64,000 nucleotides of DNA from a candidate division WOR-1 bacterium RIFOXYB2_FULL_45_9. GTDB lineage: Bacteria; Margulisbacteria; WOR-1; O2-12-FULL-45-9; XYB2-FULL-48-7. Below are positions 6,727-51,870 of this stretch, in pieces. The translations under genes were made by a program, and so were the position numbers. The stretch is taken from contig MEUD01000001.1 in the NCBI GenBank assembly GCA_001771575.1, positions 768,815 to 832,814 on the forward strand, written 5' to 3'. Every line of letters begins with the position of its first letter. The first letter of the stretch is position 1. The notes under the pieces were generated by a model, which had not been told where the DNA came from, did not search any database, and saw nothing but the letters and a program-made list of their open reading frames with translations.

Positions 6727-6727
6727 C

Positions 6728-7416: not shown

Positions 7417-7452
7417 GAAAAAAATAAGGCGCCTGATGATCTCAGGCGCCTT
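7417..7452 (-). terminator. Rho-independent terminator after the RRM-protein gene
   Basis: 11-bp stem AAGGCGCCTGA / TCAGGCGCCTT (7426-7436 / 7442-7452). On the minus strand it is followed by ATTTTTTTCTC. Confidence 0.7.
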
Positions 7453-7476
7453 AAATGTTTTAGATGCGCAAAACGA

Positions 7477-7764: not shown

Positions 7765-7856
7765 GTTGCTTAACTCCTTATATCAGATTAAATACCATTA
7801 ATAGAAACTATTAATTTCGACCTTAGACTTATAGTATGACACCTTTTAATGAATAA

Positions 7857-31349: not shown

Positions 31350-32285
31350 TTACCAAATACCACCAAAGGATATCCTATGGACATTGGACCTTGATAATTC
31401 CTGGGAAACATAGCCGTAATCAACGATCACGTGACCGACCACGAAACCGACCCCAGCGGTCAGACCGCTGGCATTATACCCGGCCCTAAATGATAGTCCG
31501 CGATCGGACCACTCAAAGCCGGTCGCAACCTCCGGAGAATAATTTGATTTAACAGTTTGGCTGACATCAACCGCCACCCGGCTTTCGGACCAAGGAAACC
31601 AGCTCAAGCCCAGCCGCGCCTTGGGCGGAACGTTTTCGACTGTCCCGGTCCCCCACTGCTGGGTATTGACCAGCTCGTCGATCTTAAAACCAAGGGTAAC
31701 AGGGTACGGTAGACGGGACACGGAAGAGGAATTGCCAAATCTAATCATTATCCCAGGGGTTAAAGAGTAGCCCCAGCCGCTCCCCCCACTGATCCCAAAC
31801 ATCTCGGAGCTTAGATATTTCGCCGTCAGACCAAAGGCAATATGGTCGTTAAGCTTTTTTCCGAAAGAAATGAGATAAGCGTTAGAAAAGTAACTAAACA
31901 GGCTGATATCCTGAACTTCGTTGTGAATATCAACCTCGCTAGATGTTTGGGCTATATTCCCCAGCCCAACCTGAATCCAGGAAAGACCGATTGTCCCACC
32001 CAGAGCCGGAGTCACATAACTAAGATAGTAATGATCGGCGTCGGTCGAGAGCCTGGTTTGACTGCAGGTGATCTCCTGGCTGGTAATAAACCCAAGACCG
32101 GCCGGGTTCCAGTAAGGAGCGTCGGCGTTATCGGCAATGGCGGTAAAGGCTCCTCCCATTGCCAGCGGACGAGCTCCGACGCCAGCATTGAGGACGGCGA
32201 TGTCGGTACCGGATTGGCCAAGGGCGAGAACAGCTGTAAGCGATAAGCCGTAAGCAATGAGCAAGAGAAATACAACTTTCTTCAT
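31350..32285 (-). CDS. PorV/PorQ-like (FadL-fold) outer-membrane beta-barrel
   Basis: 311 aa. Signal peptide. N-terminal GARPLAMGGAFTAIADNADAPYWNPAGLG matches the PorV/UPF0164 signature (aMGGAf.A.aDDa.a.ywNPAGL). Alternating strands, C-terminal ISFGGIW. Confidence 0.65.
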   Translation of the reverse strand: MKKVVFLLLIAYGLSLTAVLALGQSGTDIAVLNAGVGARPLAMGGAFTAIADNADAPYWNPAGLGFITSQEITCSQTRLSTDADHYYLSYVTPALGGTIGLSWIQVGLGNIAQTSSEVDIHNEVQDISLFSYFSNAYLISFGKKLNDHIAFGLTAKYLSSEMFGISGGSGWGYSLTPGIMIRFGNSSSVSRLPYPVTLGFKIDELVNTQQWGTGTVENVPPKARLGLSWFPWSESRVAVDVSQTVKSNYSPEVATGFEWSDRGLSFRAGYNASGLTAGVGFVVGHVIVDYGYVSQELSRSNVHRISFGGIW

Positions 32286-35200
32286 TTGAGCACCGCAATT
32301 TTGCCGCGTCCTCTGACGGTCCTATCCCCTATCCGCGCCGTGACCTCGAAGGGGTAAATTCCATTAACCACCAGATCGCCTCGACCATTCCGCCCATCCC
32401 AGGAAACATCGTTATACTTTTGCCAAACACTGGTTCCTTCGCCGTTGGTCGTCCCGTCAAGCTCGGTAACCAATGAACCAGTTAGGTCATAAATCCTGAT
32501 CTTGACCTCATCGGCGTCAGACGAGAGCCGGTAGCGGATCTTGGTCTCTTCCCGGTTCGGGTTGAAGGGGTTTGGATAATTGGTCACTCCGACCAGGGTC
32601 AGTTCCGGCTGAACCCGGAAGCTCCAGCTCTCCGAAGTTGCCGCATTGGTCGGAAAAAGAGCGGTCACTCTCCAAAAGTAGTCAGTGTTCCGCTCCAGCC
32701 CCGGGTCAAATTCGTGGATCGCGTAGTTGTAGTAATAGAGTTCGCTATCTGCTTTATCCTGGGTCCCAGTCCCGGCCGCTTTACTGAAAGTCTGGTGGTC
32801 AATCGTAAAGCTATCGTTCTTGGCGACCTCAATCCGGTACTCGGTCGTCTCCGCCTTGTGATGCTGCCATTCAAAGACCGGTCGGATATTCTGTACGTTT
32901 TGCTGATCCCTGGCCGGGGCTATAAGGGAAGGAGATTCGAGGGTAGCGGCGGCCATTATTCCTTTCGTAATCGCGCTTGCTCCTAATTTTGTTCCGGTAA
33001 TGGGGGCAAAATTTATCGGGATCTTCTGGAAAAACAACTCGTCAAATTGCCCAATATTTATTATCCAAGCAATATATGAACTATTATTATTTTCAGCACA
33101 AATAGCCACATCAGTCGCGTTTCCCCCGTTAAACACTTTTACCGGACCATAAATATCATTACCAACTATTCGCTTATAATATATATTGCCATTTGAAATC
33201 GAAACAATATGTCGATAATTGTCAATTGAATAATTAGCGCTCTTTGGAACGATCCCTGATCGAGGATTAACAGCCGCTGAAACAATCTTTGCCTGATATT
33301 CCTTCCCACATCCCTTTTCATAATAAGGGTTATTGTCAGGCCCATCATGCCATTGCAAGGTCATATAATCCTGGGTACTGATATCAAAGCCGGTTATCTC
33401 AACTAGGACATTGCTGTGTTGTAATAATCGCTGATCATCCAGCAAGTTAATATCAATATTCCTTGTTATTGCATTATTTCCAATATTATCAACGGCACCA
33501 ATCTCGATCGAATAGCTCCCCTCGTTCTCATAGTCGCCGCTGTTATTCGTCCCGTCCCACGACACATAATAACCGCCGCTTCCGTTGCTATTAACCGTCA
33601 AGTTTTTAACTATAGCGCTTCCGAATCTAACAACCGAGGAGATATTGCCGATCGCGAAACCGGAGCTTGGAGCGCCATCGCTCGCCGTAAAATCGACCCG
33701 AGCGCCGCTGTCAACATAAGGGTTAAAAGTAATTGCCAACGTTTGAATGATATTGATTACCGGCGGAATGTTATCGATCTTTATCGTTATTTTTGTTTCC
33801 GCGTAGTTGCCAACTTCGTCGGTCGCGGAAAGTCTTATGTCGTAATCACCATCAACACCGGCAGTGTTCCAGGAAGTTATTGTCCCGCTTATCGGATAAC
33901 TATCTTTTTTGATAACCGTCCAGGTATTTGACCCAAATGGCGCGTAGTCAACTTTATAAGCGCCAGGGTTAGTATCAGTCGCGCTGCCGGCAATAATGAT
34001 CGATCCTTTAATCCATTCATTCGCGGCCGGCGCTGAAATATTTACGGCCGGCGGCGTTTTGTCAACTAATATCCGATAATAAGTATCCTCTCCACCCAAT
34101 GGCTTATATGCACCATAGCCGGCTTTTCTGGAATCAAAGGAATTCCCGGCGGCGTCGGTCGCGGTATAGTAATAGTAGTAATAGCCATCATGTCCGGTCG
34201 GTTCCCACTCCTGATTGATAACCAGGTCACCGGTTTGCGGAGGAACTGCCGTCGCTCCAAAGGTCTTCACCAAACCGCCGCCGGCATTCACGATTTTGAT
34301 CTGCCAATTGTTTATCCCCGAAATCGCGTCCGCGCCGCCATTGAAATCGGCCATGACCCCAAGTAAAGTAGTTGTCGGATTATTGACCGTAACCGGCGGG
34401 GGTTGAACGACCGACTTAATAACAGGGGCGGCGGAATCCAACACAATCTGGTCGGCAAAAAGAGCGGTCGAATAATTCCCCGCCCTGTCCATTAGTCTCA
34501 CCCGCGCCGTCTTGGTCCCGTCTCCGGCCGAAAGCGTCCAACTTCTCCCCACCGCGTAAGCCTCCCAGGAGGACCAGTTGATACCATCAGGGCTGAAGCT
34601 CATCTGGTCGACCCCCGAGGTTGGATCGCTGGCGGAGACGAACACCTCAACGGTCAAAGAGCTGGTAAAATCAGGGTTACCCGCGTTGACGATCACGCTT
34701 CCATCAGGCGCTAAAGTATCAGCGACAACGCTGACCGTTTGAGCCGTTGAATTATTTCCAGCCTCATCGATCGCAATGATGTTAAAGTAATATTCTCCGT
34801 CGCCAAATCCGCTTCCATTTGCCGCGCCGACATAACCGGTCGCGCCGGAGCCGTCCCAGAGGGCGGAACAGCTTCCGCTCGTCCGCCAAACCTCTGAAGT
34901 CAGGCTCTTCACTAAATCGTTCCCTTTAAAAACCTCGACCGCGACTTTAGCCCGGCCGGAATTATCGCTCACTTCATAGGTACAAACAGTTGTTTTACCG
35001 GATGAGTTAGTTCCGCCGGGAGCAAAATAATATGGCGTTGCTAAAACATTTTTAACCTCGGGCAAGGAGTTGTCGACCGTCACCTCTCCGGTCAACGGAG
35101 GTAGGTGATTGCCGGCATAATCTTCAAGATCGATCGCGAGCCAATACTTCCCATTGGCGGCATAAGAACCGTTGTTATCCTTGCCATCCCAATCCTCCCA

Positions 35201-38200
35201 GGAGAGGGTCCCAGATTGGGCGACAGCGTCAGTCGTAATGGTCCGGACCAGGCTGGTCATGGCGCTATCGCCATAAACCTTAAGGGAATACTTGCCGACC
35301 GGCTTGGTGTCTATGGTCACCCCCATCGCCTCGATCCTCTCCGCCGCCGGAACCGTCGCCGGATTTAAAGAGAGATCGACCATAAAGTAGAATCGAGCCC
35401 GTTTTTGGAACTCTTGGCTGTTGCCGTTTGGCGAAATGACTTGTGGATCGGGATTATTTGTCACATCGGAAGCCTCAAACTGCTCCGGAGAGCGGAGAGT
35501 TAAAACATTGTTCTGGACCCAAACAGTTCCACCCCATTTTCGGAGAGTGGCGTTCCCCAGACTGTCTTCACCTTCGACAATAAAGGCGTATTTGCCGGGA
35601 TCAACATAATCACCGCCAGCCATTTTCCCGTCCCAATTAACCTGGTACTGCTGACCACCGCTCTGCCATTGGCCGGCTATCAGCGTTGTCACTAAATTTG
35701 TGAAATCGGTTTTTTGCTTATTGGGATCGAGCCGATAAACTTTAACCGAGACCAGGGTGTCTTCAGTCAACATGTAATACAGAGTGGTAGCGCGCGGACG
35801 GTCGCTCCCATCAGGGTTGGCATTGGTCGAGAAGCTCCCCGGGTTGGCGATCATCCCCTCTTCACTGGAAATAATGACCATCGGGTTGGTGACATCGACC
35901 GCAAAATCCTTGGTCAACGAAGTGATCGTTCCCAATCGGTCTTGAATGGTAATTTTGGCGTAATACTTGCCGGTCGGAAGAAGCGAGCCGCTCGACAAGC
36001 CCGCGGCAGGATAATTGGTCCGGCCGTCGTAAACATAGGAGTAGCTCCCGGAAGAGCGTTCCAGTCCGGTTTCAAAAAGTATTTCGCCGTTTGCCGAAAG
36101 GACCGACAAAAGGACGCTCGGTTCTCCTTCGACAACGTAAAACGGTGGATAGATGACTGAATAATTGATCGTCATAGTTTCATTATTATCGTCGCCATTG
36201 GGAGAAAAGGCGGCTGGATTCAAAGTGAAATCAGGGGTGATCTTTCCACCCGCCGCTTCGAGCCTGCCGCTCGCCTCGACTTTTACCCCATCCGCGTCGG
36301 TCGCCGTTATTTGGTAGTGGTATTCGCCGTCCGGGACATATGTTTCAGCCGACGAAAGGACAATTGATTTTCCATCCCAATAGAATGAATAGCTCCCCGA
36401 CGATTGTTCGTCATTTTCTGCCAGGCGTCGGATAGTGGTCCCAATGGCATTAACAACATCAACGTTAACAATGTAAGGCGGGGTTCCGCCGCTAAGTTGA
36501 TAGGCAATCCGGATGGTATCGGTATGACCGTCGCCGTTCGGGGTAAAGATCGCCGGATCGGCAAGATGGTCCAAGATCGTGGCGGCCGCGAAAGCGAATT
36601 TCTCGGAGGCGGTCGCTTCATTTGAGGATCGATCGACCGCCCTGACCGTCACCGTCCCTCTGTAGCCGACTGCTTCCTCATCGAAAATCAGCTTATATTC
36701 CCCGGCGGTTTTAGCTTCGCAGGTCATAAGCGGGGCGGCTTTGCCATCATCGCAGGTAAGGGTGACATCGACGGTCGAGTCTTCGGGGACCATGAAGGTG
36801 ACGGTCGCTTGTTTGCCGTCGATCTGGACCGGCCGGAGAATAACGGTCGGCGCGGTCCCGTCGACCCGGACAGTATTGCTTGCTTCCGCAGAAATTCCGT
36901 CCGAGCCAATAACAGCCAGTTTGATCAAATAAGAGCCGTCGCTGACTTTTTCCCCATCCCCTCCCCTGCCGGACCAGTAAACAGCATGTTCCCCTTTTCC
37001 CTGGGAGGCATCCTTTAGAAGAGTTGTGACGATTTGTTCACCGGTTATCGCCAAATTGACCTTAAGGTCGTCCCGGGAAAGATAGTATTTTATCGCGGCG
37101 CCGGACGCCGGAGAAAAAGGGTCCGGCTCGGCAAAAAGATATGAAATAAGAGTTGGCGCCCGGTCGACAACGATCGCTTTAATCTCGGAGGTAACGCTGT
37201 TGCCGACCCAGTCTTCGGCATAGATATAATATGAATAGTTTCCACCGAGAAGTTCATTGCTGTTCCCGCGGCCATCCCAGCTCCAGCTCCCGCTGGAGAA
37301 TGACAAATGACCAATGTCAAATGACAAATTGGGATATTGAAATTTCTCGGTCTGACTTTCAGCATTCTTGAAGAGCTCGCCGTCTTCGCGATAAATCCCA
37401 AGCTTGACCGCGGAGGGTTCGCTCAATTTATACCAAAAATCGGTCGTATCTTTTACCCCATCATCGTTGGGGGTGAACGGGTTTGGCGCGGCGTTCAAAC
37501 CCAAAACCTTTGGCGGAGTAAGGTCGATCACGGTCTTGACCATGACGTTCTCGGAAATATTCCCCGCCTCATCGATAGCGTAACCAACCACGGAGTATTC
37601 TCCGTCTATTAAATTTGCAGGATTTGGGACCTGGGAATAAAGGGCCCAAAGGCCGGTCGCGTCATCCCGGCGATACAGCTTAAACCCTTCATTTGACCAA
37701 TTGACCTTAAGCTCTTTTCCCGCCGGAAGCGGCGCGTCGATATTGATCAGGTCGCTTGATTCCTTAACTCCCAGGTAGATCTTTCCTTTTTCATTGATCG
37801 TCATGAGGAAATCGACACTATCGTATTTTCCATCGCCGTTAGGGGAAAAAGCGTAGAGATTTGGAACAATACCAACCGTTGGCGGGGCGGTATCCTTCAT
37901 GACCATGACATCGCCACAGGTTAAAACATCGGGATTCCCTTGGGGATGAGAAGTCACGTAAATGTAATTAGCTCCTTCCTGTAATAGGGGAACATTCTCA
38001 AAACGGAAATTGCCGTCCTCATCGGCCACCTCACCCTCATCCACCATCGCCTTCGGCGACGGTCCCCCTTCTCCCGCTGTGGCGGGAGAAGGCCGCACAA
38101 TCAGATTTAAGACCGAGCCTGGCTCTGCCGTGCCGTAAATAGTCACGCTGTTTTTATTGGTAACATAACGATCAGCCAGGACGATCGGCGCGGAAAGCTT

Positions 38201-44200: not shown

Positions 44201-45508
44201 CTCTGTTATCATTGGGTGTCTTATAATAACTTTATCTTTCATTGCGTTATGAGCCATTATATAATCGGTAGCATCTTCCATCGGCAAACACGCGAGGCCG
44301 GCTCCTACAGCAATCCATATTGACACATTTCCAGGCAGAAAATAGGTTGCCGCTAATACGCTGTCAATAACTGTCCCTAAAACAGCAATTGAAGAGCTTC
44401 TAAAGGTGTATTCATATCTTTTTGCTTCTCTTAAGCTTGCAATCCCTTCTCCTTTTTGGCTCGCAACCGAAGAAACAAGGTCGCCATCGTCAAAAAAAGG
44501 ATAGCCGGACATTACCGTCAATCCAATGCTTGATATCTTTTCTTCATAATTTCCCATATCTTTTTTGGTCAAAGCATTAGATAGCGCAGCGGTGAAACGC
44601 GTGACTACCACGGAATTATATACAAGCCCTGTTCCATCAGACACCCTGGTTGGCGTCGGAACCCCTTTTCCGGCTATTAAACTATACGAAGGCGCTTCAT
44701 ATATTCCTGGGACTTCTGATAATAAATTTAATTCATTTAAAAATGGCCCGTTCGGTTTTTGCTCCTGAACTATTGGTTGGCGAGCGTGTCTATCCAGTCC
44801 GGTTAGGGCTCCTTCAGTTAAAGCAGTTGAGGTCAACGCGGCTACCGCGTTGGAAGCCACAAACACCCTGGATGAGTAATCCCATGGAAATGCGCATAAG
44901 GCCAGCGCTGTCCAGGGGATTAGTATTCTTGCTCCCGCGTTTTCTTCCGACCAAATAGCCGCTTCTCCCGCCTGACTGCCAAGATGGGGAGTATCAATCG
45001 TTATTATCTTTTTTACGTTCCCCTCATAAAGTGGATTGCCATTTTCGTCTCTCCCCATCACGTAATAGCGAGCCGCGAGACCTCCAGCCGAGTGGCAGAT
45101 TAAGATGAATTGAGAGGGAACCATTGAGTCGGGGACATCGGCAATTGTGTTATAGTCATCATGCGAATCCAGCCTTATAACATATTTCTTAAAATCCGAC
45201 TTTGCCCATACAAACCAATCCTTAAGCTCCTTAGCCCAAGTTTTGATACTGCCAAATTTGTCTGAAAATTTATATCGGTAGACATGACCTCTTAATCCCA
45301 AACCGCCATCAGCAATAGATTTCTCGAGATATTCTTGAGTAGCCTTAAGACAATCTTCGCCATCTCCCGTACCATGGAGCATCAAGATTAAATAATTATT
45401 TAGAGATTCAACATTTCTATCCCGATCGGATACTAATTCAGCATTTGCTACACATGCCAAAACAACTAATAAACCAACCAAAACAATGTACTTAAACAGT
45501 CTCCCCAC
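32282..45508 (-). CDS. 4,408-aa secreted giant surface protein: N-terminal lipase-like alpha/beta-hydrolase, Ig-like array, repeated FlgD-Ig/CTD-like modules, C-terminal T9SS type-A-like sorting domain
   Basis: Single uninterrupted ORF with a GTG start. Signal peptide MGRLFKYIVLVGLLVVLACVANA|E. Hydrolase motifs LMLHGTGDG, ILICHSAGG (Ser140), IDTPHLGS. Many D.T.P-delimited Ig-like units. C-terminus: NYPNPFNPNREETKIRYRL...VKIRIYDLTGSLV...VSWDGRNGRGDLVVNGIYPFEV...GKIAVLK. Confidence 0.9.
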   Translation of the reverse strand: MGRLFKYIVLVGLLVVLACVANAELVSDRDRNVESLNNYLILMLHGTGDGEDCLKATQEYLEKSIADGGLGLRGHVYRYKFSDKFGSIKTWAKELKDWFVWAKSDFKKYVIRLDSHDDYNTIADVPDSMVPSQFILICHSAGGLAARYYVMGRDENGNPLYEGNVKKIITIDTPHLGSQAGEAAIWSEENAGARILIPWTALALCAFPWDYSSRVFVASNAVAALTSTALTEGALTGLDRHARQPIVQEQKPNGPFLNELNLLSEVPGIYEAPSYSLIAGKGVPTPTRVSDGTGLVYNSVVVTRFTAALSNALTKKDMGNYEEKISSIGLTVMSGYPFFDDGDLVSSVASQKGEGIASLREAKRYEYTFRSSSIAVLGTVIDSVLAATYFLPGNVSIWIAVGAGLACLPMEDATDYIMAHNAMKDKVIIRHPMITEATSNIGTNDPPVKVSFEEDLTGATMLEEAIFDSSYIGSTSTTSLREIPFILSTNQTKESDGKVTTLSAFHPVEVKGYSYDNRSNTSVPIVIDGQEQKVTSISVKEAPTKISGVLRDFMPSKMQYFQCSENFAAWKPVPKMDEWGNFEVDGLKLAEGQNVIAFRAKNKVGYESNQLLKVILNTIPMQPSQFKPLPEYYVATPNPEISVEFNKAEYSGSFEVESVKIIRVLVDGMEVEYEVEIINDPYHPKAIVRVKGDHPLSDGMHQVLVVAESNVGTAQAAWGFFVDTGAPSLAVSPLMPYSPRAPATIRWSATDEVSPILRSVRCDLYRYQGIEESSNQVFVTNIATADSLSKGENFFTLVPGNLGASLPDGKYIVKIKAFDLAGNSAVAETPLVVDSTPPTIGEVAITPNPTTSINTEMKLTANVSEKAQVIIKLNNLSNKKITAYLTQANAFPLNAYSFPASYSWPFNNSFNPGPEDGLYRVEVIARDDAGNESPPRTLEAIRIDRTPPVIYGQIANPYVLTNIGANAYKTTLFYQLSENNDAEGNKRDQGIKVKVKVFNVNTGQEVDFFENASGLISEENKLAWNAARSLDASIPLPKGSYKFQITATDDVGNSATAYSSCVKDGIAPVISFPAENGAEVFGLIAIRGTAMDPDWSNDKPFKQYRVFYMKGKQEAATILSQASVLSTAALEVPLINRASGNSNVSLRPLQNDATLAYFNTNGLENGEYTIMVVVDEENGESLAATRVVKVNNNSFASTMATSPYVNLNPLASNVDFRADDSVKLPIGFINSVKPANVYVEIIKPRAWPSPAPAGEGGPSAAGGTVGEGGEVVFFKYFPNIAGAPFVGKPDYKPGTDLGYFIWSDEAGYHIRWSADGSSHKFTGNIITIGGNITPLPSLPASGGGEGIGVRVAHNMISWDSTIAGGEKGFDFTADGGQLMITPKLDEDPSPSIYADNVYLGITKQTQQFLPLVIDVANQRLINLTEMGSHSSLTTYNLSLTTSWDGRLDTGAYVDNGAYIVRVIAEGADGRGLASDEAVVNVTTPFELKVKEATNKEFSSLSVPDRVSVFYNVSKDALITARVQKENGDFVAGLAVGKEGLVWTGNYPNSDSTQVVTSGNYKIVLIAAAKDGSGTKTEVIDGIKVVSFERNESQVKLDPIGRQVGNLWLADGDSPFYFEAKGYGSYHPVKDLTYTLTAFGKQKITAYPYVPFAGLMHRGFNRVFGKIKVKFKSHCYRPSKDMFGLDNGQAYTIIDSESDFKIFELSKDNPVYELTFNLNAADWDWQGITGVDALVEVHSESEFLLDKMNDYQRAQWNVLEKNLSTFSTQKGIFKIKLINKQTDNAKPKIIVRLSLDGEIPYSRLTNRFVPWFGFVNANEEKRKDFSEYLTDINRGLGFPGKKFFDDPDAKPDLPYKPKNEIEAEFAGLTSWSDRSAKLKEMSEQASLLGYKDSLASSAGYDSYLSEEYFEFIPITYPDQAGGNRGGLDFSDGSTIVTAHTDLVYLYDGNPQSPFIFSWPWRESEYATAVASQTAQQRKLDKELGGEPQNYTGPTIAGTWWKLDLSQVNQRRIDQNNSAVFTGQVYYNKTSKRGEWSSQAVDQLLPLPNYVYDKLFQVESNTPGIMVSLSSSAPSAVVNAEDQDISGFPWTTADDTNLLASRGYLRSLPLAFNPDAFRSRRLLKLSSAYQVADDYRSAAAAKQTFLKRDPWEPDNFDSPVDNPHLEIDRWDVLIKDKSGAINKDIVLEGITAGERRLDDTLALKLKLDASESRFVEITGQAPGPYELQYYDGKSWQSIAQSFDEAPTSGRLAWWNVSRLSGDYTVLLRSGSFIATQNVSIGTLIKKETGGDAWSAYKRAQLKFPPRAFGDRDQLATVTPVTMKEIKIRNKPIILTSGPIVEIKPSPWKFTVSSLEGVDLRPTLRFIYTFDELKELGAWSGEGEPKNLPWNIHQVTEAGDLQIISDNQQTIEENNGEKQYVFYAALDHFSTYALLPGKFKLSAPIVLADRYVTNKNSVTIYGTAEPGSVLNLIVRPSPATAGEGGPSPKAMVDEGEVADEDGNFRFENVPLLQEGANYIYVTSHPQGNPDVLTCGDVMVMKDTAPPTVGIVPNLYAFSPNGDGKYDSVDFLMTINEKGKIYLGVKESSDLINIDAPLPAGKELKVNWSNEGFKLYRRDDATGLWALYSQVPNPANLIDGEYSVVGYAIDEAGNISENVMVKTVIDLTPPKVLGLNAAPNPFTPNDDGVKDTTDFWYKLSEPSAVKLGIYREDGELFKNAESQTEKFQYPNLSFDIGHLSFSSGSWSWDGRGNSNELLGGNYSYYIYAEDWVGNSVTSEIKAIVVDRAPTLISYLFAEPDPFSPASGAAIKYYLSRDDLKVNLAITGEQIVTTLLKDASQGKGEHAVYWSGRGGDGEKVSDGSYLIKLAVIGSDGISAEASNTVRVDGTAPTVILRPVQIDGKQATVTFMVPEDSTVDVTLTCDDGKAAPLMTCEAKTAGEYKLIFDEEAVGYRGTVTVRAVDRSSNEATASEKFAFAAATILDHLADPAIFTPNGDGHTDTIRIAYQLSGGTPPYIVNVDVVNAIGTTIRRLAENDEQSSGSYSFYWDGKSIVLSSAETYVPDGEYHYQITATDADGVKVEASGRLEAAGGKITPDFTLNPAAFSPNGDDNNETMTINYSVIYPPFYVVEGEPSVLLSVLSANGEILFETGLERSSGSYSYVYDGRTNYPAAGLSSGSLLPTGKYYAKITIQDRLGTITSLTKDFAVDVTNPMVIISSEEGMIANPGSFSTNANPDGSDRPRATTLYYMLTEDTLVSVKVYRLDPNKQKTDFTNLVTTLIAGQWQSGGQQYQVNWDGKMAGGDYVDPGKYAFIVEGEDSLGNATLRKWGGTVWVQNNVLTLRSPEQFEASDVTNNPDPQVISPNGNSQEFQKRARFYFMVDLSLNPATVPAAERIEAMGVTIDTKPVGKYSLKVYGDSAMTSLVRTITTDAVAQSGTLSWEDWDGKDNNGSYAANGKYWLAIDLEDYAGNHLPPLTGEVTVDNSLPEVKNVLATPYYFAPGGTNSSGKTTVCTYEVSDNSGRAKVAVEVFKGNDLVKSLTSEVWRTSGSCSALWDGSGATGYVGAANGSGFGDGEYYFNIIAIDEAGNNSTAQTVSVVADTLAPDGSVIVNAGNPDFTSSLTVEVFVSASDPTSGVDQMSFSPDGINWSSWEAYAVGRSWTLSAGDGTKTARVRLMDRAGNYSTALFADQIVLDSAAPVIKSVVQPPPVTVNNPTTTLLGVMADFNGGADAISGINNWQIKIVNAGGGLVKTFGATAVPPQTGDLVINQEWEPTGHDGYYYYYYTATDAAGNSFDSRKAGYGAYKPLGGEDTYYRILVDKTPPAVNISAPAANEWIKGSIIIAGSATDTNPGAYKVDYAPFGSNTWTVIKKDSYPISGTITSWNTAGVDGDYDIRLSATDEVGNYAETKITIKIDNIPPVINIIQTLAITFNPYVDSGARVDFTASDGAPSSGFAIGNISSVVRFGSAIVKNLTVNSNGSGGYYVSWDGTNNSGDYENEGSYSIEIGAVDNIGNNAITRNIDINLLDDQRLLQHSNVLVEITGFDISTQDYMTLQWHDGPDNNPYYEKGCGKEYQAKIVSAAVNPRSGIVPKSANYSIDNYRHIVSISNGNIYYKRIVGNDIYGPVKVFNGGNATDVAICAENNNSSYIAWIINIGQFDELFFQKIPINFAPITGTKLGASAITKGIMAAATLESPSLIAPARDQQNVQNIRPVFEWQHHKAETTEYRIEVAKNDSFTIDHQTFSKAAGTGTQDKADSELYYYNYAIHEFDPGLERNTDYFWRVTALFPTNAATSESWSFRVQPELTLVGVTNYPNPFNPNREETKIRYRLSSDADEVKIRIYDLTGSLVTELDGTTNGEGTSVWQKYNDVSWDGRNGRGDLVVNGIYPFEVTARIGDRTVRGRGKIAVLK
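38067..38092. repeat. in-frame GC hairpin element A inside the giant gene
   Basis: CCTTCTCCCGC-TGTG-GCGGGAGAAGG, a perfect 11-bp stem. Encodes PSPATAGEGG. Confidence 0.8.
41471..41511. repeat. related in-frame inverted repeat C inside the giant gene
   Basis: CCCCTCTCCC (41471-41480) and GGGAGAGGGG (41502-41511) separated by 21 nt. Encodes PLPSLPASGGGEG. Confidence 0.65.
41742..41767. repeat. in-frame GC hairpin element B inside the giant gene
   Basis: CCCTCTCCCGC-TGGG-GCGGGAGAGGG, a perfect 11-bp stem. It differs from element A by a compensatory T:A to C:G pair and shares the left flank GGCG(G)ACGGTCCCC. Encodes PSPAPAGEGG. Confidence 0.8.
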
Positions 45509-45520
45509 AGTCGGCCCCCA

Positions 45521-46483
45521 TTATTTTATCTCCTTATAACCAGATCCATCGATACTTATAATCCAAATTCCACTTTTGTCATATTCATTCAGGTATATGC
45601 CGCCACAAACTTGATTGTTATCTGGTGATAGCTTGGGATTTGTCCATGTTTTAGGCGACAATTGTCCACTAAGACCATGCGTTATGGTATTTATAATTGT
45701 CTTGTTCAGCACATCAATTTTTAAAAAGCTCGTGCTATTACTTGTAAATATATAATTGCCATCAGAATAATATTGAGGGTATGCGCCTATGCTTTCGCTT
45801 GAAAGAGTTGTGGTTTCAATATTCAAGCCGTCTGCCCCGGTAAAAGCCAAACAATAGTAACCATTTATTGCATTCAAAAATGCTATTTTTGTTGAATATT
45901 TCCATGTGGGTTCAGCCGCATGAATTCCTGATATTTCAACTTTATTACTTCCATCAATATTCACGGAAAACAATGGGATAACACTATTAAAAGGTGTATA
46001 GGTTAATATCTCTTCCCGATAAACTAACTTATCCTCTTCCGGTCCCCAATCAAGCTCGGCAATGGCTTGAGTTGTTGGTTGAAAACTATAAACCTGGGTG
46101 TTATCTGACCTCCGAACAATATGAAAAGTCGAGGTATTATCAACATAACAAACATATGTCCCTTTGGGTGAAAAATATGGATAATATGAATACGGCAATA
46201 TTGATTGATGAGTCCCATTAGTATCCATTGTCGCATAATAAGTGTCTTCGCCCGTCTTAATTGTCTTTTGCCCGCCAAAAAATAATCCTTGCCATTCATT
46301 TTTGTAATGGGACACAACCATCCTGGCGTAAATATTCCCCTCCGGTGTCCAGTTAGGATCGAAATATGATATTTCGTCATATACCGTCTCCCCACACCCT
46401 CCTCCTACAATCGCCAACCCAAAAAGAGCCGCCGCCAACAACATTAATCCAACCGCTTTTTTTATCGTCATTTTAACAACCAC
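45521..46483 (-). CDS. lipoprotein with TolB-like beta-propeller repeats
   Basis: 320 aa. Lipobox LAIVGGGC. Recurrent SP.G / dG..i.y strand patterns (FSPKGTYVCYV, LSPDNNQV, ISIDGSGYKEI). Very AT-rich gene. Confidence 0.55.
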   Translation of the reverse strand: MVVKMTIKKAVGLMLLAAALFGLAIVGGGCGETVYDEISYFDPNWTPEGNIYARMVVSHYKNEWQGLFFGGQKTIKTGEDTYYATMDTNGTHQSILPYSYYPYFSPKGTYVCYVDNTSTFHIVRRSDNTQVYSFQPTTQAIAELDWGPEEDKLVYREEILTYTPFNSVIPLFSVNIDGSNKVEISGIHAAEPTWKYSTKIAFLNAINGYYCLAFTGADGLNIETTTLSSESIGAYPQYYSDGNYIFTSNSTSFLKIDVLNKTIINTITHGLSGQLSPKTWTNPKLSPDNNQVCGGIYLNEYDKSGIWIISIDGSGYKEIK

Positions 46484-46647
46484 CCTTCTTGTTTATAAGC
46501 AATTTTTTTGCCAGGGGGAACAAGGAGACAAGGCACCTAGACGCCTTGAAACCTAGCAGTCTGACCATACCTAATATTATCATCCTTTTTCCCCAGAAAT
46601 TGCAATCAATATTTCTTATAAGGTGGCGGGATTTCGACGGACACAAG

Positions 46648-46661
46648 GGAAAGGAATCAAG
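46648..46661. repeat. left arm of the 14-bp inverted repeat flanking the four-helix-bundle gene
   Basis: GGAAAGGAATCAAG. Embedded in about 4 degenerate NNNCAAGG tandem units (46648-46687). Confidence 0.75.
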
Positions 46662-46688
46662 AAGCCAAGGCATCAAGGGGCCAAGGGC

Positions 46689-47087
46689 TTATTCCCCTTC
46701 TCGACACCTTGATGCCTTAATGCCTAGATGCCTCTCCCCTAAGGCCCTAATCAAAGCCGCCAGCATTCTTTCAATCTCATTTTGCTTCTCGAATAAATCA
46801 TTAAACTTAGCTTGATTAAGATATTCTAGGTCTTTGGCCAACAACAATTGCGTTTCAAGTTCAGCTCCAGACGCGTAAGCAATTTTAAGGAACTGAATAT
46901 ATTGCCCCAAATACCTACGACCATACCCTTCCGCGATATTAAAAGGAATGGAAGCCGCCGCTCGCCTAATTTGTGATGTTAACCCATATTTCTCATCAGT
47001 CGGAAATTCTTTTGTTTCTTTATACACATCAAGCGTCAACACATATGACTTTTGCCATACCACTAGATCTTTGAAGGTTTTTATCAT
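46689..47087 (-). CDS. four-helix-bundle protein (23S rRNA intervening-sequence protein family)
   Basis: 132 aa. FKDLVVWQKSYVLTLDVYKETKEFPTDEKYGLTSQIRRAAASIPFNIAEGYGR...FLKIAYASGAELETQL matches the family signature closely. Confidence 0.85.
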   Translation of the reverse strand: MIKTFKDLVVWQKSYVLTLDVYKETKEFPTDEKYGLTSQIRRAAASIPFNIAEGYGRRYLGQYIQFLKIAYASGAELETQLLLAKDLEYLNQAKFNDLFEKQNEIERMLAALIRALGERHLGIKASRCREGE

Positions 47088-47125
47088 CGTTCTCTTTTCA
47101 CCTCAATCCCTCGATTCCTCGATCC

Positions 47126-47139
47126 CTTGATTCCTTTCC
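47126..47139. repeat. right arm of the 14-bp inverted repeat flanking the four-helix-bundle gene
   Basis: CTTGATTCCTTTCC is the exact reverse complement of 46648-46661. It is preceded by tandem CCTCAATC/CCTCGATTC/CTCGATC/CCTTGATTCC units (47101-47134). Confidence 0.75.
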
Positions 47140-47223
47140 TCACTAAACCAATCCGTTTGAAAGATGCTTCTCTATTGGGGACCCGGGTAAACCCAGGCCC
47201 CCAACGTAAAAACTACCTAAAAA

Positions 47224-47892
47224 TTATAAATAGTAATTTATCCCAACCCCAATTTGCGAATTACTATACGCTGGCAGCCAACTCGCCGAAACCGTGTTGC
47301 TGGTTAATTCCACAAGAATCGAACTGTTTGGTAGCCAGGCATAAGACCCTCCAACTGTCACGCCAAGCTGGGTTGATGGCTCACTGCCGCCTGAATAATA
47401 GTTGCAATATCCGAAACCCACATATGGAGTAAAAGCGGAAAGCTTCTTGCTGATCTCAACCGCCGCCAAATATTGCGAAACAATGTTATTGGCAGTTACC
47501 GAAAATGAAGTGGCTGAAAAATTCATTGATTTATATCCAAGTCGGCCGGCGACCGAAATTGATGAATTGGCCCCTTCTTCCAAAAATTGGTAATTTGTCA
47601 CTAAACCGATTGTGGCTACTGACATTGCGACACCGGTTGGCAAATTCCCCACATTTGAGGAAGCGGCAGTGAAATAAAGGTCCAGCTTGTCGGTCAATCC
47701 ATAGCCGATATTTCCTCCCCAAGTCGACATATTCATATCATCTGAACCAATAGTTCCAACTTTTGAATCTTTGACATAATTCCCACTAACCGCAAATTTC
47801 CCTTGTCCAATCGGATCCCCGGTCGACATGATCTCCGCGGAAGCAATAGAGGCTATTAATACGATTAGCATTAAACTTGAAACAATTTTCAT
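47224..47892 (-). CDS. small outer-membrane beta-barrel protein
   Basis: 222 aa. Signal peptide (IASIASA|E), alternating amphipathic strands, C-terminal GVGINYYL. Confidence 0.55.
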   Translation of the reverse strand: MKIVSSLMLIVLIASIASAEIMSTGDPIGQGKFAVSGNYVKDSKVGTIGSDDMNMSTWGGNIGYGLTDKLDLYFTAASSNVGNLPTGVAMSVATIGLVTNYQFLEEGANSSISVAGRLGYKSMNFSATSFSVTANNIVSQYLAAVEISKKLSAFTPYVGFGYCNYYSGGSEPSTQLGVTVGGSYAWLPNSSILVELTSNTVSASWLPAYSNSQIGVGINYYL

Positions 47893-47964
47893 TTTATTTT
47901 CCTCCTAAATTTTATTTGAAACTGTTTTTTCTCTTTTTATTAGTTGATCACCTCCTTAAGCCAC

Positions 47965-48744
47965 TTAAATATTTTTTAACCGGTACCGGAAATTAACCGC
48001 TATTGAGAAGAAAGAGGTGGTTTGCGATTTGTAGTAATCGTCAACTATTTCAAATTGCCAGGGCTCGTCATTATTGGCAGGGCCAAACCCAGCCAAGGTG
48101 CGCCAACCGGTCGCCATCCCCCCCGACATTGAAGAAAAATACGCGCCAACACCAAAGCCGAAATATCTTCCGTCATCTAAGCTGAATATCAGATCGTTGG
48201 TCACCGGCAGAACACCACACCTTGTCCCAAATAGGTAACCGACCGAAACTCTTGATTTTAGAGAAAACAACTGGTAGTCATGACTAAAACCGACCTGCAC
48301 GCCGGAGTTTGACCCGTAATTATAATAGGTGTTTTCATCATGATAACTAATGGCAGAATAGCCAAGTTGCCATCCCCAACCAGGCGAGGATTGGAGCGCG
48401 TTTGGTCGCGCAATTTCCTCGACAATAGCCTCCTGGGATGGTTCAATCTCCTGATTTTTAGCAATTGACACCCACAAAACGGCTTCTTCGCTTACCTTCA
48501 CTTCGATCATTTGAGAAAATATTTGCTGGTCAGCGCTATTCGCGGTTACCAGGTGCCGGCCGGCCTGAACTTTGGGCAAAGAAACCGGCGTCGCGCCAAC
48601 ATCGACCATATCCAAAGAGACCGGGATCGAGCCTGATTCTGAAGTGATAATTAATGAACCGTAGCCATTTGCCGCCAGGGTCGAAGAAGCCAAGAAAGCC
48701 AGAAAGCCAAGGATTAATACTTTTTTACTCAATTGAAATATCAT
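47965..48744 (-). CDS. PEGA-like domain protein with C-terminal beta-barrel region
   Basis: Start chosen at ATG 48744 (MIFQLSKKVLILGFLAFLASSTLA, a signal peptide, GAGGGGG RBS), overlapping the upstream gene by 20 nt. GSLIITSESGSIPVSLDMVDVGATPVSLPKVQAGRHLV resembles PEGA. The track version (to 48918) adds an implausible N-terminus. Confidence 0.55.
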   Translation of the reverse strand: MIFQLSKKVLILGFLAFLASSTLAANGYGSLIITSESGSIPVSLDMVDVGATPVSLPKVQAGRHLVTANSADQQIFSQMIEVKVSEEAVLWVSIAKNQEIEPSQEAIVEEIARPNALQSSPGWGWQLGYSAISYHDENTYYNYGSNSGVQVGFSHDYQLFSLKSRVSVGYLFGTRCGVLPVTNDLIFSLDDGRYFGFGVGAYFSSMSGGMATGWRTLAGFGPANNDEPWQFEIVDDYYKSQTTSFFSIAVNFRYRLKNI

Positions 48745-49999
48745 CGATATATACCCCCTCATAATCAACACTTGAATCGGTCGCGTACCTAAACCTAATA
48801 AAAATTGCTCTACCAGCGTAGGCGTCCAACGACAGCTCCTTTCTTGCCCAGCTCGAATTACTACCGTTATAACTGGCCAAAGACGTCCAGGTTGCTCCGT
48901 CAAGCGACGCCTGGACATAAAGGTAATCGTACGAGGATTCGGTTTCGTAATAAGTCTGAAAAACTAAATGTTTGCCGCTGGTAATCATCACCGGTGAAAC
49001 CATGGTTAAAATGTTGTTTAAATTGTTTCCCCGGCCGGAATAAAAGCTATGCGTACCGTTTGCCGCCCTGGCCATGGAGATAGAAAAGCCATTGGCCAGC
49101 CATTTCTCGGCCCCCGACTCGGCATCGTCGCTGAAACTACTCTCCGCTGACGGAGAAACTGATGTCGGGCCAGGCGAGGGCGCGGCCCCGATATCGTAAA
49201 ACCTGGTTTCATTGATGGCGGTTTGGAAGACATAATCAAAAGTGATTTCTGAATTATTAAGCTCAACGATCTTGAATTTGCCGAAATACCGGCTGCCGGC
49301 AACGAACAACGCAAAACAATAAATATCACCGGCTTTGACAAGTGGGTAGGACCTCCACTGGTTTTCCTTAGTATTGCCGGCGCTGTAATAATCGCCGGTG
49401 TATTTTTCGCAGACCTGATCAAGCCCGGTAATCTGCCCGTCAAGAGCGGTTAAATTGACGAAACCGCCGTCAAAATCGTAGGTGGTCCCGCCGTTATGAT
49501 CGCCATAAAACACCAGCGATTCGCCGTAATACGAAGACTGATGGATATAATCAAGGTCACCGTAATATTGGTCCCTTACAGAGCCGCTTAAAAAATCAAA
49601 GCTTTTCCCCACCGGCAAAGTCACCTGACCGGAATGGAGAGTCGTTTCCGTTGCTACCGCATCTACCTGGACGGTAACTTTGGCGTGAGCGTCCAGCCGG
49701 CCGTTGCCGACATAAATATCAATATCCTGCGAGCCGCAGTCCGCCGACGCCTGAACGACAGCCGCCGCGCCGCTGGCGTAAAGATGGCTGGCCCCATTGC
49801 CAACCTTGTAGCTTAAAATGTTCCCCTGGCTATCGCTTGCTCTTAAAGCTACTTTGACGTAACCGCCCGGAGCGACTGCCTCCGGGGAAACAACAACCCC
49901 TTGAATCGTCGGAGCAGTCATGTCGCCGGCGGTCGTTGTGCCGCAGCCGACTATCACCAGCGGAATTAGGAGCAGAAGAGAATAAACTAGTTTTTTCAT
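48725..49999 (-). CDS. lipoprotein with Ig-like N-domain and C-terminal MAM/choice-of-anchor-J-like domain
   Basis: 424 aa. Lipobox LVIVGC. C-terminal ...SWARKELSLDAYAGRAIFIRFRYATDSSVDYEGVYIDDISIE resembles jelly-roll anchor-J/MAM ends. Confidence 0.5.
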   Translation of the reverse strand: MKKLVYSLLLLIPLVIVGCGTTTAGDMTAPTIQGVVVSPEAVAPGGYVKVALRASDSQGNILSYKVGNGASHLYASGAAAVVQASADCGSQDIDIYVGNGRLDAHAKVTVQVDAVATETTLHSGQVTLPVGKSFDFLSGSVRDQYYGDLDYIHQSSYYGESLVFYGDHNGGTTYDFDGGFVNLTALDGQITGLDQVCEKYTGDYYSAGNTKENQWRSYPLVKAGDIYCFALFVAGSRYFGKFKIVELNNSEITFDYVFQTAINETRFYDIGAAPSPGPTSVSPSAESSFSDDAESGAEKWLANGFSISMARAANGTHSFYSGRGNNLNNILTMVSPVMITSGKHLVFQTYYETESSYDYLYVQASLDGATWTSLASYNGSNSSWARKELSLDAYAGRAIFIRFRYATDSSVDYEGVYIDDISIE

Positions 50000-51870
50000 T
50001 AGAATTTCACCCCCGTGCTGAATTTAATCCGCGCGTCCTTGTAGCCAGTGAGCAATGTCCTGCTTTGAGAGCCGGCGGCAAAATCAGGGTAAACAACGAC
50101 ATTGCCTTCCCGCAAGACTTCATATTCTCCCGCCAGGTCAAAAGTCAGCGAACCAAACGCTAAACCGACTCCGGCGCTATATAGGTTTGTCCTGAAGTTA
50201 TAGCCGTTCGGATAATTGGGATCGTCTGCGAGATTGGGCAAACGGATAAAGCGGCCACCCGTACCAAGGCGTAAAGAGATGTTATCGGTCAGCATGTACT
50301 CTGTTCCATATTTTACGTCGTAAATCGAGGAAGCGTAATAATTAAGTAAATCAATGTTTACAACCAGGCGGTCAAGCGGCTTATAAGAAAGCCCCAAACC
50401 TAAATTCTCCGGATCGTGAAACGAGAAATCCTGTTCGGTTGGATTGGCTGAATTAGCCAGGCGGCCATTGATAGTAGCCGGTATTTCCAGTCTGGCGCCC
50501 AAACCTAAAGACTCGGTCGGCCGAGTCAGGATCCCAACCTGACCGCCAATGCCGCCACCGCGGAATTCACAACTGCTCCCATTGTTATGCAAGCCAACCC
50601 AGCGATCACTATAAGTAACTCCCATCCCAAAAAGAATTTTGGGCAGAACTGCGGCGCCGGCATAAAGACTAAGATTTATCCCGCCGTTATCGTATTGAAA
50701 AAAACTATTGTTTATCCTTAAATTGCCAACATTAAGATTGAGGCCCAAGCCTCCCCGTTCGGTTGGGACAACAATACTAAAATCGCTGGGACAAGCCGGG
50801 TTTTCAACATAACTGTTGTATATATCTTTTACGTTGTAAGAAAGGCCGGCGTTCGGCATGGTTATGTTGGCACTGCTGTATTGCGCGCTCCAATTAAGCG
50901 ACATCGCTGTTTCTGTTATCTGGCCAAGACCGGCGGCATTGTATTTAATCGATTCCGGACCAACCGCCTCCCCGATAAAGGCGTCTCCCATTCCCAGAGG
51001 TCTTGTTTTTTCTTTAGGTAGGCGTCGCGCCCGCTCAAGAAGAGGCATGGTTTCCATGGGTAGAACTTCAACCAGATCTCCATTCCTGACGGGATCAAAA
51101 GTCTGGGTAGTGATAATTCGACACACCGCTGAATCATTGGCGGTTTCAACCACTTCAAGTTCGCCATATTTTACCTTCTCGTCAAGTAAGGGTTCTGTAT
51201 GAAAAAGTTCTAAAATATCACCGTTAGCCACGCCTGACTTTTTACCAAGATCAATATAAATCAGATTATCCTCTTGGTCTAATACCTGTCCCTTAACCCG
51301 GCAATTTCGAAGTATCGTTAAATATATCTCTTGTATTGATTGTTCAATATTGCCTGGATCGGTAAGATTTTCCTGGGCAATTATCTTTTGTTTCGCAGTC
51401 TCGATCGCGGTCAAAGAAATCTGGTAACTGCTAACTTTCACGGTATAGGCCTTATCGCTTGACCCGTTCATCAATAATAACGGGGGAAAGAAAAAGCCAT
51501 ACATCCAACCATAACCCAGATTGCTATCCCCGCTCTTGCGTTTAACAACCTCTTTCTCTTTTCTATCAACTTTACAAATAACGATCGCCCGCAGGTCCAG
51601 TAATTCGGCTATTTGGGAATAATTATAGTTTCCACCCTCTAATATGGAGGGAAAACCGGCTTTTTTCTGGGCAGCGAACAATTCTTCTTTCTGGTAGACA
51701 TTAAACCGGCCGCTATCAACCAGCTTCCGCGTTAGCTTATTAGCAATGGTCTCGCTCACTTGTTGGTCATTAAAGGATTGGCCCAACACCAGAATCGCAG
51801 GCTTATCATCAGCAAACGAAACGTTTATTGTGACTACTGCGATACAAAGTATTAAAAATATTTTTTTCAT
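49999..51870 (-). CDS. fusion protein: CsgG/LpoB/FlgO-like periplasmic N-domain, beta-sandwich, PorV-like C-terminal beta-barrel
   Basis: 623 aa. Signal peptide (NVSFA|DD). ILVLGQSFNDQQVSETIANKLTRKLVDSGRFNVYQKEEL resembles CsgG/LpoB N-domains. RPLGMGDAFIGEAVGPESIKYNAAGLG repeats the PorV-like signature. C-terminal KFSTGVKF. Confidence 0.55.
   Translation of the reverse strand: MKKIFLILCIAVVTINVSFADDKPAILVLGQSFNDQQVSETIANKLTRKLVDSGRFNVYQKEELFAAQKKAGFPSILEGGNYNYSQIAELLDLRAIVICKVDRKEKEVVKRKSGDSNLGYGWMYGFFFPPLLLMNGSSDKAYTVKVSSYQISLTAIETAKQKIIAQENLTDPGNIEQSIQEIYLTILRNCRVKGQVLDQEDNLIYIDLGKKSGVANGDILELFHTEPLLDEKVKYGELEVVETANDSAVCRIITTQTFDPVRNGDLVEVLPMETMPLLERARRLPKEKTRPLGMGDAFIGEAVGPESIKYNAAGLGQITETAMSLNWSAQYSSANITMPNAGLSYNVKDIYNSYVENPACPSDFSIVVPTERGGLGLNLNVGNLRINNSFFQYDNGGINLSLYAGAAVLPKILFGMGVTYSDRWVGLHNNGSSCEFRGGGIGGQVGILTRPTESLGLGARLEIPATINGRLANSANPTEQDFSFHDPENLGLGLSYKPLDRLVVNIDLLNYYASSIYDVKYGTEYMLTDNISLRLGTGGRFIRLPNLADDPNYPNGYNFRTNLYSAGVGLAFGSLTFDLAGEYEVLREGNVVVYPDFAAGSQSRTLLTGYKDARIKFSTGVKF

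Follow-up and report, generated by a model that had tools for sequence, protein, structure and literature searches.

A conserved, probable type IX-style cargo-anchor unit beside an unrelated outer-membrane cluster and a selfish cassette in a WOR-1 bacterium

The stretch of DNA examined here (64,000 nt, hereafter the window) comes from contig MEUD01000001.1 of the candidate division WOR-1 bacterium RIFOXYB2_FULL_45_9, and between positions 31350 and 51870 it carries eight tightly packed open reading frames (ORFs), all on the minus strand. In the order of transcription, these encode a 623-aa fusion of a FlgT-like module with a barrel, a 424-aa lipoprotein with a MAM domain, a protein with a PEGA domain, a small putative outer-membrane protein of 222 aa, a 132-aa four-helix-bundle protein, a 320-aa propeller lipoprotein, a giant of 4,408 aa, and a 311-aa barrel of the PorV/PorQ family. 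The first two genes overlap by 1 nt and the second and third by about 20 nt; the next four junctions are gaps of 72, 136, 205 and 12 nt, and the last two genes overlap by 4 nt. These coordinates agree with the eight co-directional genes, 0-205 nt gaps and several overlaps described in a first-pass annotation of this DNA. A signal peptide or lipobox is present on seven of the eight proteins, the exception being the four-helix-bundle protein. The closest named proteins belong to candidate division WOR-1/Candidatus Saganbacteria and to Margulisiibacteriota. Our findings identify in this block a conserved, probable cargo-anchor unit of the kind known from secretion systems of type IX (T9SS), in an unexpected lineage outside the Fibrobacteres-Chlorobi-Bacteroidetes (FCB) superphylum, and beside it a rare outer-membrane cluster that is unrelated to this unit, as well as a selfish cassette.

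The giant (32282-45508) terminates in a domain of the kind found in T9SS cargo. Its last 100 residues (32285..32584) form a C-terminal domain (CTD) of the T9SS CTD/FlgD_ig class, which passes the threshold of FlgD_ig (PF13860) with 57 bits. The C-terminus reads NYPNPFNP...IRIYDLTGSLV...NGIYPFEV...GKIAVLK and thereby carries the elements of a type A CTD, namely PNP..., ...D..G..V, GvY...v and a K/R at the extreme C-terminus. When the last 122 aa were searched in isolation, they matched the C-terminal region of the PorU model (E 2.8e-11), the model of a T9SS-dependent M6-like protease (E 2.2e-10) and the C-terminal region of the PorZ model (E 1.3e-5). These matches and the motifs uphold the earlier identification of a T9SS type-A-like terminal domain, to the extent that it is a CTD of the T9SS kind. 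The same region stays below the cut-off of PF18962 (20.2 versus 27 bits) and of the type B CTD model TIGR04131 (17.4 versus 35), and a sequence search of the CTD against the PDB gave only a marginal match to FlgD.

The terminal domain also differs from the rest of the giant in how it has been conserved. Within the window, a single YPNPF motif is found, and it stands at the start of this domain. We compared five cargo-barrel pairs, namely the window pair, a paralogous pair elsewhere in the same genome (locus L005; related loci are designated by such numbers) and the pairs of L008, L018 and L019. Across these five, the last 100 residues of the cargo are 72-94% identical, the barrels 49-81% and the passengers 24-70%. 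Between the window and the L005 paralogue, passengers are 24-37% identical and the last 234 residues 86%, with a nucleotide identity there of about 83%; in the last 100 codons, 35 synonymous-only differences stand against 10 amino-acid changes. Judged by these sequences, the CTD is under strong purifying selection. Recent gene conversion was considered as a source of the likeness between the paralogous CTDs and was rejected, given a nucleotide identity of 74-83% and the many synonymous changes. Because of its unique motif, its best profile matches, its top rank in conservation, the signs of purifying selection and the existence of a second class of CTD (see below), we favor the reading of the terminal domain as a putative sorting signal over its reading as the last immunoglobulin (Ig)-like repeat of the giant.

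The gene that follows the giant (31350-32285) encodes a 311-aa protein with a signal peptide, which reaches 95 bits on the PorV/PorQ family model NF033709 (cut-off 90). Its AlphaFold2 (AF2) model has a mean predicted local distance difference test score (pLDDT) of 77.6 and about 14 strands, and the best PDB matches of this model are the T9SS entries 8gl6_F (E 3e-11) and 6h3i_F (E 6.5e-9), at TM-scores of 0.64-0.65. We take chain F of both entries to be PorV, and the predicted structure is then a 14-strand FadL-like fold closest to PorV. The next matches are TbuX, TodX, FadL and entries of the machinery for beta-barrel assembly (BAM) that contain BamG; the matched chain B of one such entry, 9n2d, may presumably be BamG itself. 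The FadL/Toluene_X family (PF03349) scores 17.9 bits, below its gathering threshold of 29.7, and kinship with it lies at the level of the fold. None of the PorP/SprF models matches the barrel at E<=0.1, the PorV2 equivalog is far from its cut-off (65 versus 325), and a profile of the barrel found nothing among PDB sequences. Homologues scored on NF033709 reach 80-143 bits. The family has 482 homologues, with identities of 52-83% among the 120 listed; those with names derive nearly all from Margulisiibacteriota, WOR-1 or Saganbacteria, and several can occur per contig. The second PorV-like barrel of the first-pass annotation is therefore confirmed as a PorV/PorQ-family protein, by the score on NF033709 and by the PDB matches. 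A "PorV-type signature" was also said to occur twice in the block. The motif G-x-R-P-L-x-M-G-x-A-F...N-P/A-A-G-L-G is indeed found twice, but it is probably not specific for PorV and may be the N-terminal 'NPA' hatch motif of the FadL superfamily in general.

A genetic linkage between giants and barrels is evident well beyond the window. In all five of the related loci sampled, a homologue of the barrel is encoded directly downstream of a FlgD_ig giant of 3,200-5,067 aa, and the giant-barrel junctions of these five are overlaps or gaps of at most 75 nt; in the window itself, the stop codon of the giant and the start codon of the barrel overlap by 4 nt. Further cargo-barrel pairs in L012 and L013 represent a second class of both CTD and barrel. 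Two of these (L012a and L013a) have CTDs that are 52% and barrels that are 43% identical to each other, compared with about 31% and 23-27%, respectively, to the window class. The L012a CTD passes the type A model TIGR04183 with 33.1 bits and matches the C-terminal region of PorZ (E 1.5e-15), and the L012a barrel scores 143 bits on the PorV_fam model and 105 bits on the PorQ model. In these alignments, the class of the CTD tracks the class of the barrel. A preferential linkage of cargo and barrel is thus seen in five of five sampled homologues and in two second-class pairs, and the contrary case of no preferential linkage is ruled out, as every barrel homologue fetched follows a giant.

Some of these loci show how the pair is arranged elsewhere. 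The paralogous pair of L005 has none of the other six genes of the block nearby, and the pair therefore does not need them in cis; its passenger carries FG-GAP, NHL and SGL domains. About 1.1 kb downstream of that pair is a gene for a large serine recombinase (L005 12053-13615; Resolvase + Recombinase + Zn_ribbon_recom). In L018 (11050-11640) and also in L017 (11086-11640), a protein of 184-196 aa is encoded right behind a PorV-like barrel and consists of little beyond a signal peptide and a CTD (…SYPNPFNPD…GVYLVRV…VMAVR), and it thus represents a minimal cargo. Second-class pairs stand in tandem arrays in L012 (67-1185 and 2856-8130) and L013 (2-2556), where PorQ-model scores of the barrels are near 100 bits and proteins with a CarboxypepD_reg domain recur nearby.

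The gene that precedes the giant (45521-46483) encodes the 320-aa propeller lipoprotein. A profile built from 16 homologues matches TolB structures (E 4e-7), and a Gly-Cys lipobox is invariant in the family, in accord with the beta-propeller lipoprotein of the first-pass annotation. A homologue of this protein is encoded upstream of the orthologue of the giant in every locus fetched, at a distance of 2-13 nt in L013-L016 and about 510 nt in L012, compared with 12 nt in the window. The propeller protein is a conserved upstream partner of this orthologue group of giants.

The remainder of the giant comprises a signal peptide, an alpha/beta-hydrolase-like head, long arrays of Ig-like domains, internal FlgD_ig/CHU_C-like domains and, last, the terminal FlgD_ig domain. 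The Ig-like domains are of the Big_13, Big_3, internal FlgD_ig/CHU_C-like and OmpL47 types, and no tandem repeats were found in the giant gene. The head (44729..45391) resembles PGAP1, palmitoyl-thioesterase and DUF676 families at scores below Pfam thresholds (PGAP1 22.9 bits versus a cut-off of 24.3; Palm_thioest 21.2). Orthologues of the giant, at 45-70% identity, occur in L008, L012, L013 and L014. Where the head region is present in orthologues, the LICHSAGGLA sequence is kept as HS[AM]GG, a nucleophile-elbow motif (L013, L014 and L016), and the L019 orthologue has a Palm_thioest match as well. The passenger may be pictured as an Ig-repeat stalk bearing a lipase- or esterase-like head.

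No product of the block looks like a translocon of sufficient size for a folded Ig-repeat protein, and export must depend on machinery that either has its genes elsewhere or is of a kind not yet described. Among the eight block proteins and the other ORFs scanned in the 64-kb window, we found no SprA/Sov, PorK/L/M/N, PorU, PorZ or PorT; the earlier statement that PorK/L/M/N, SprA/Sov, PorU and PorZ are absent is correct for this window. The other window ORFs of at least 180 aa nearly all belong to housekeeping families, a few have no Pfam match, and none exceeds 600 aa. Likewise, the neighboring genes in L012-L014 include no T9SS components, only more PorV-like barrels and a weak LolA-like match. 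Because no gene of block or window is translocon-like, we regard giant and barrel as an anchoring pair and not as a secretion system.

We propose that the functional core is probably a three-gene cargo-anchor unit, comprising the propeller lipoprotein, the giant and the PorV/PorQ-family barrel, in which the CTD is tethered to the barrel. Surface tethering, as the first-pass annotation had suggested, is a reasonable reading given the conserved linkage of CTD and barrel. The giant would be exported via Sec and would then cross the outer membrane by machinery encoded outside the block, after which its CTD would bind the cognate 14-strand barrel non-covalently, such that the giant is displayed on the cell surface. 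The CTD would probably stay uncleaved. The propeller lipoprotein may be a periplasmic or outer-membrane accessory of this cargo lineage, possibly with a role like that of PorE. The logic would be the same as that of PorZ-PorQ, PorU-PorV and SprB-SprF/PG1035-PorP-PorE in Bacteroidota.

Comparison with these systems reveals both likenesses and differences. The CTDs of PorU and PorZ stay uncleaved in Porphyromonas gingivalis, where PorQ anchors PorZ and PorU is found with PorV in the attachment complex (PMC10947112). In these pairs, as proposed for the window pair, a PorV/PorQ-family barrel holds a surface protein by way of an uncleaved T9SS-class CTD, and among the best profile matches of the window CTD are those to PorU and PorZ, in the C-terminal region of each model. 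However, the cargo in our case is a 4,408-aa Ig-repeat protein instead of a sortase or a component of lipopolysaccharide delivery, cargo and barrel form a single dicistron with several cognate pairs per genome, neither the PorV nor the PorQ equivalog is passed by the barrel, and the host is outside the FCB superphylum. A different precedent is offered by type B CTD proteins, which bind adjacent PorP/SprF-like barrels, as in SprB-SprF and PG1035-PorP-PorE (PMC9143113), and cognate PorP/SprF shuttles are known in F. johnsoniae (PMC12618676). In the sprCDBF genes of Flavobacterium johnsoniae, the gene of a giant adhesin is directly followed by the gene of its own 14-strand barrel, as in the window. 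The cargo is bound to the barrel in SprB-SprF and PG1035-PorP-PorE, as we propose for the giant, and several specific pairs can be present per genome. The beta-propeller of PorE (PMC9143113, PMC12618676) parallels the propeller lipoprotein, although the latter lacks TPR, CRD and OmpA_C domains. Moreover, in contrast to SprB-SprF, the CTD of the giant is of the type A/FlgD_ig class, and the barrel is of the PorV/PorQ and not the PorP/SprF family. The arrangement is thus a hybrid, wherein a type A/FlgD_ig-class CTD is combined with the one-cargo-one-barrel genetics that have so far been described for type B CTDs.

Several points weigh against this interpretation. The window CTD is just under the cut-off of the type A model (TIGR04183; 21.9 bits versus 23), and the barrel is far from the equivalog models of PorV (28 versus 250 bits; NF033710) and PorQ (37 versus 220 bits; NF033711). 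The covariation of CTD and barrel classes comes from seven pairs, with phylogeny as a confounding factor. In addition, the CTDs of the two paralogues in this genome are 90% alike and their barrels only 65%, which fits a shared trans-acting recognizer equally well as cognate pairing. Both the binding of CTD to barrel and the display of the giant at the surface are steps that we infer, and the role suggested below for the upstream cluster is a guess. T9SS is described in reviews as specific to the FCB superphylum (PMC12398890, PMC11205867) and its core was not seen in the window.

This last point could also be taken as support for an alternative in which T9SS plays no part. Here, the CTD and the barrel, together with general factors such as BAM, would themselves export and hold the cargo, in the manner of a split autotransporter, in a lineage that lacks SprA and PorKLMN. 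We consider such a two-partner system possible but unlikely. In its favor, the lineage is sibling to Cyanobacteria, the reviews just cited call T9SS FCB-specific, and we found no link in the literature between T9SS and Margulisbacteria or Saganbacteria. Furthermore, cargo and barrel are found again as a dicistron that stands alone, all sampled cases show strict pairing, and the overlap of stop and start codons suggests coupled synthesis. However, the search for T9SS core genes had the 64-kb window as its scope, and no FadL-type barrel is known to export a protein longer than 4,000 residues. The L012 cargo, which passes the type A model and is paired with a barrel of 105 bits on the PorQ model, would be easiest explained by a full T9SS. 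If the lineage does lack SprA and PorKLMN, the CTD and the PorV/PorQ-like barrel could form an autonomous module for display, and possibly for export, that is either an evolutionary precursor or an independent re-use of the T9SS shuttle and anchor, a scenario to which we give low credence.

The remaining genes of the block bear on whether it functions as a single machine. The first of them (49999-51870) encodes the 623-aa fusion, which has a cleavable signal peptide, a FlgT-like part at approximately residues 25-280 and a barrel of the FadL/PorV superfamily at approximately residues 284-623. In Foldseek searches, the N-terminal part matches FlgT (3w1e, E 2e-8) and the LPHT ring (8z5n, E 3e-8) far better than CsgG (about 1e-2). 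The AF2 model, based on a four-sequence alignment, has a pLDDT of about 75 for the FlgT-like part and below 50 for the barrel half. The score on FlgT_C (PF16538) is 23.2 bits versus a cut-off of 27, and the TM-score to 3w1e is low, with the barrel half poorly modeled. The C-terminal 340 aa are homologous to the 311-aa barrel and its relatives (230 columns aligned by hhalign at a probability of 96.8% and E 2.4e-10) and reach only 16.8 bits on the PorV_fam model. Hence, of the CsgG/LpoB-PorV fusion originally described, the barrel half is retained on the strength of the hhalign comparison, while the other half is better matched by FlgT than by CsgG/LpoB. The N-terminal ~280 residues appear to share the fold of FlgT of the Vibrio flagellar H-ring, but no flagellar genes are nearby and an outer-membrane barrel is joined to the module. 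Fusions of this kind are rare, with three relatives among 5.8 billion protein clusters and eight at E<=1e-30 among 1.84 billion representatives, and the fusion is carried by one GTDB species genome.

The 424-aa protein (48725-49999) has the lipobox VIVGC, an InhA-like MAM domain (PF20773, 86 bits) and a choice-of-anchor J match (NF038128, 39.8 versus a cut-off of 30), scores that establish it as the jelly-roll (anchor-J/MAM-like) lipoprotein that had been predicted. The PEGA protein is encoded by an ORF at 47965-48918, although translation probably begins at an internal Met (48744), which would yield a gene (47965-48744) for a signal peptide-bearing protein of 259 aa, like the 252-aa gene in L002. 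Its PEGA domain scores 23.7 bits (cut-off 20.8), and its C-terminal half is beta-rich and a putative barrel. For the 222-aa protein (47224-47892), only a sub-threshold match to DUF6588 was found, and it is putatively an outer-membrane protein because of its signal peptide and sequence pattern. A paralogous relationship between the 222-aa protein and the C-terminal half of the PEGA protein was considered and is not supported.

These four genes are kept together in L001-L004 in the order 222, 630, 420, PEGA, where they are found beside ybaB-type genes instead of hypA. In L001, L002 and L004, the 630-aa gene is preceded by a homologue of the 222-aa protein (45-47% identity); in L002, L003 and L004, a homologue of the 424-aa protein (48-67%) comes directly after the fusion gene; and in L002, the MAM lipoprotein gene is followed by a PEGA homologue (59%). 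By sequence and gene order, the four-gene set appears as a separate conserved outer-membrane cluster. Its adjacency to a giant is seen in this genome only; scans of GTDB genomes and JGI metagenomes for the 623-aa family gave only the same three short contigs, and contigs break near the giant gene. By analogy, the cluster may be a second device in which a FadL-type barrel holds a surface lipoprotein, with the barrel of the 623-aa protein as socket for the MAM lipoprotein. In the BAM complex of Bacteroidota, the surface lipoprotein BamH is held by BamG, a barrel of the FadL type (PMC12611786), and a FadL-family 14-strand socket of this sort would be a conceptual analogue. In contrast to BamG-BamH, there is no BamA/BamD context here and the fusion has a FlgT-like periplasmic module.

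Between this cluster and the propeller gene is a cassette (46648..47139) with the gene for the 132-aa four-helix-bundle protein (46689-47087). The protein scores above both relevant cut-offs (PF05635, 133 bits versus 33.8; TIGR02436, 127.5 versus 24), and the four-helix-bundle assignment is thereby secured, within the family of 23S rRNA intervening-sequence (IVS) proteins. A 32-nt imperfect inverted repeat (46648-46679/47108-47139; 78% complementary) brackets the ORF. The protein is cytoplasmic, without a signal peptide, and the cassette is outside the envelope system. The cassette resembles the IVS type, but its location is intergenic and not within an rRNA gene. An assignment of the 132-aa protein to Avd of diversity-generating retroelements was rejected (NF033474, 26.8 versus 80), and no window ORF scanned matches a reverse-transcriptase family. 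The equivalent slot upstream of the propeller gene in L013 (6668-8661) holds DUF1016_N, ParE-toxin and PDDEXK_3 genes along with a 92-aa gene without a Pfam match. This suggests that the slot between the two operons is a hot spot for small mobile genes.

With these neighbors in view, the proposal that all eight genes form one self-sufficient machine for export and anchoring, in which the two barrels and the FlgT/CsgG-like module provide passage across the outer membrane, becomes highly improbable. The genes are co-directional and tightly packed, signal peptides or lipoboxes are found on all products but the four-helix-bundle protein, the two barrels are members of a single superfamily, a weak similarity to CsgG is seen in the fusion's N-terminal module, and there are no other secretion genes in the window. 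Nevertheless, the two sub-clusters are adjacent here alone, the propeller-giant units of L012, L013 and L014 have no homologue of the 623-aa, 424-aa, PEGA or 222-aa proteins, and the L005 pair stands by itself. The halves of the block are further set apart, with the cassette and its inverted repeat as well as the widest intergenic gaps lying between them. Moreover, 14-strand FadL-type barrels are not known as translocons for folded multi-domain proteins, and the N-terminal module is far nearer to FlgT (E 2e-8) than to the channel-former CsgG (about 1e-2). The self-contained export module of the first-pass annotation is therefore given up, in view of the lone L005 pair, the L012-L014 units without the four-gene set, and the cassette in between.

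Also highly improbable is a reading of the barrel as an ordinary FadL-type channel for the uptake of hydrophobic products of the giant's head, with the terminal domain as a last Ig repeat: FadL, TodX and TbuX are strong structural matches, the Toluene_X match in Pfam is weak, many barrel homologues carry UPF0164 (a Treponema family described as FadL-like), the giant has an alpha/beta-hydrolase-like N-terminus, and FlgD_ig-like domains are also internal in it, but barrels equally follow giants without a hydrolase head (L005 with FG-GAP/NHL/SGL, and L012a with yet another passenger), no other segment is as conserved as the terminal domain, which alone carries YPNPF, PorV chains outrank FadL among structural matches, CTD class tracks barrel class, and the 311-aa barrel is shorter than the matched FadL chains (360-444 residues).

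The block interrupts what looks like a hyp-rnf operon. Upstream is hypA (51982..52326, minus strand; PF01155, E 1.5e-17) with a gene of the RseC family beside it (flank region 51982-52709). Downstream, at 0 nt past the barrel gene, is hypB (30702..31349, minus strand; TIGR00073, 231 bits versus a cut-off of 121), which is followed by rnfCDGEA and a gene for an RnfB-like Fe-S protein; the rnf subunits score above the cut-offs of their models. The genes hypA and hypB are normally adjacent, and here they are held apart by the 20.5-kb block. The GC content at third codon positions (GC3) is 0.33-0.55 in the block, with minima of 0.33 in the propeller gene and 0.38 at the giant gene's 5' end, compared with 0.63-0.65 in the flanks (hypA 0.64, hypB 0.65). 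Because of the split of hypA and hypB and the deviant GC3, the block seems to have been inserted or rearranged into a hyp-rnf operon, and the whole of it looks to have been placed between the two genes via rearrangement or acquisition. No integrase, tRNA or flanking direct repeat was found at the block boundaries, and promoter and terminator scans gave counts at shuffle level. Elsewhere in the window (5270-8318), eight small minus-strand ORFs (86-153 aa) form a run upstream of feoB that has an unusually strong negative GC skew (-0.23 to -0.26).

Saganbacteria and Margulisbacteria are siblings of Cyanobacteria and are known for metabolism based on Rnf and hydrogenases (PMC6349859), with which the hyp-rnf flanks of the block agree. 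Published descriptions of these organisms, as far as we found, concern metabolism only, and we found no publication that ties T9SS or PorV to Margulisbacteria, Saganbacteria or FlgD_ig. Our findings suggest that giants of 3,000-5,000 residues on the cell surface are a major feature of the envelope in these organisms. Type IX secretion and its logic of CTD and PorV are regarded as a hallmark of Bacteroidota and the FCB group. Here, a strict pairing of PorV/PorQ-family barrels with giants that end in a T9SS-class CTD, with several cognate classes, is seen in uncultured, hydrogen-metabolizing siblings of Cyanobacteria, and its hybrid arrangement there is a natural test set for the determinants of specificity between CTD and shuttle. 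If a T9SS core is present in these organisms, then the known range of the system reaches well beyond the FCB group. An autonomous module, if true, would mean that type IX-style sorting occurs in a Cyanobacteria-sibling lineage without the type IX translocon. If the core is absent, tethering of a CTD to a barrel works without the translocon, which bears on how T9SS evolved.

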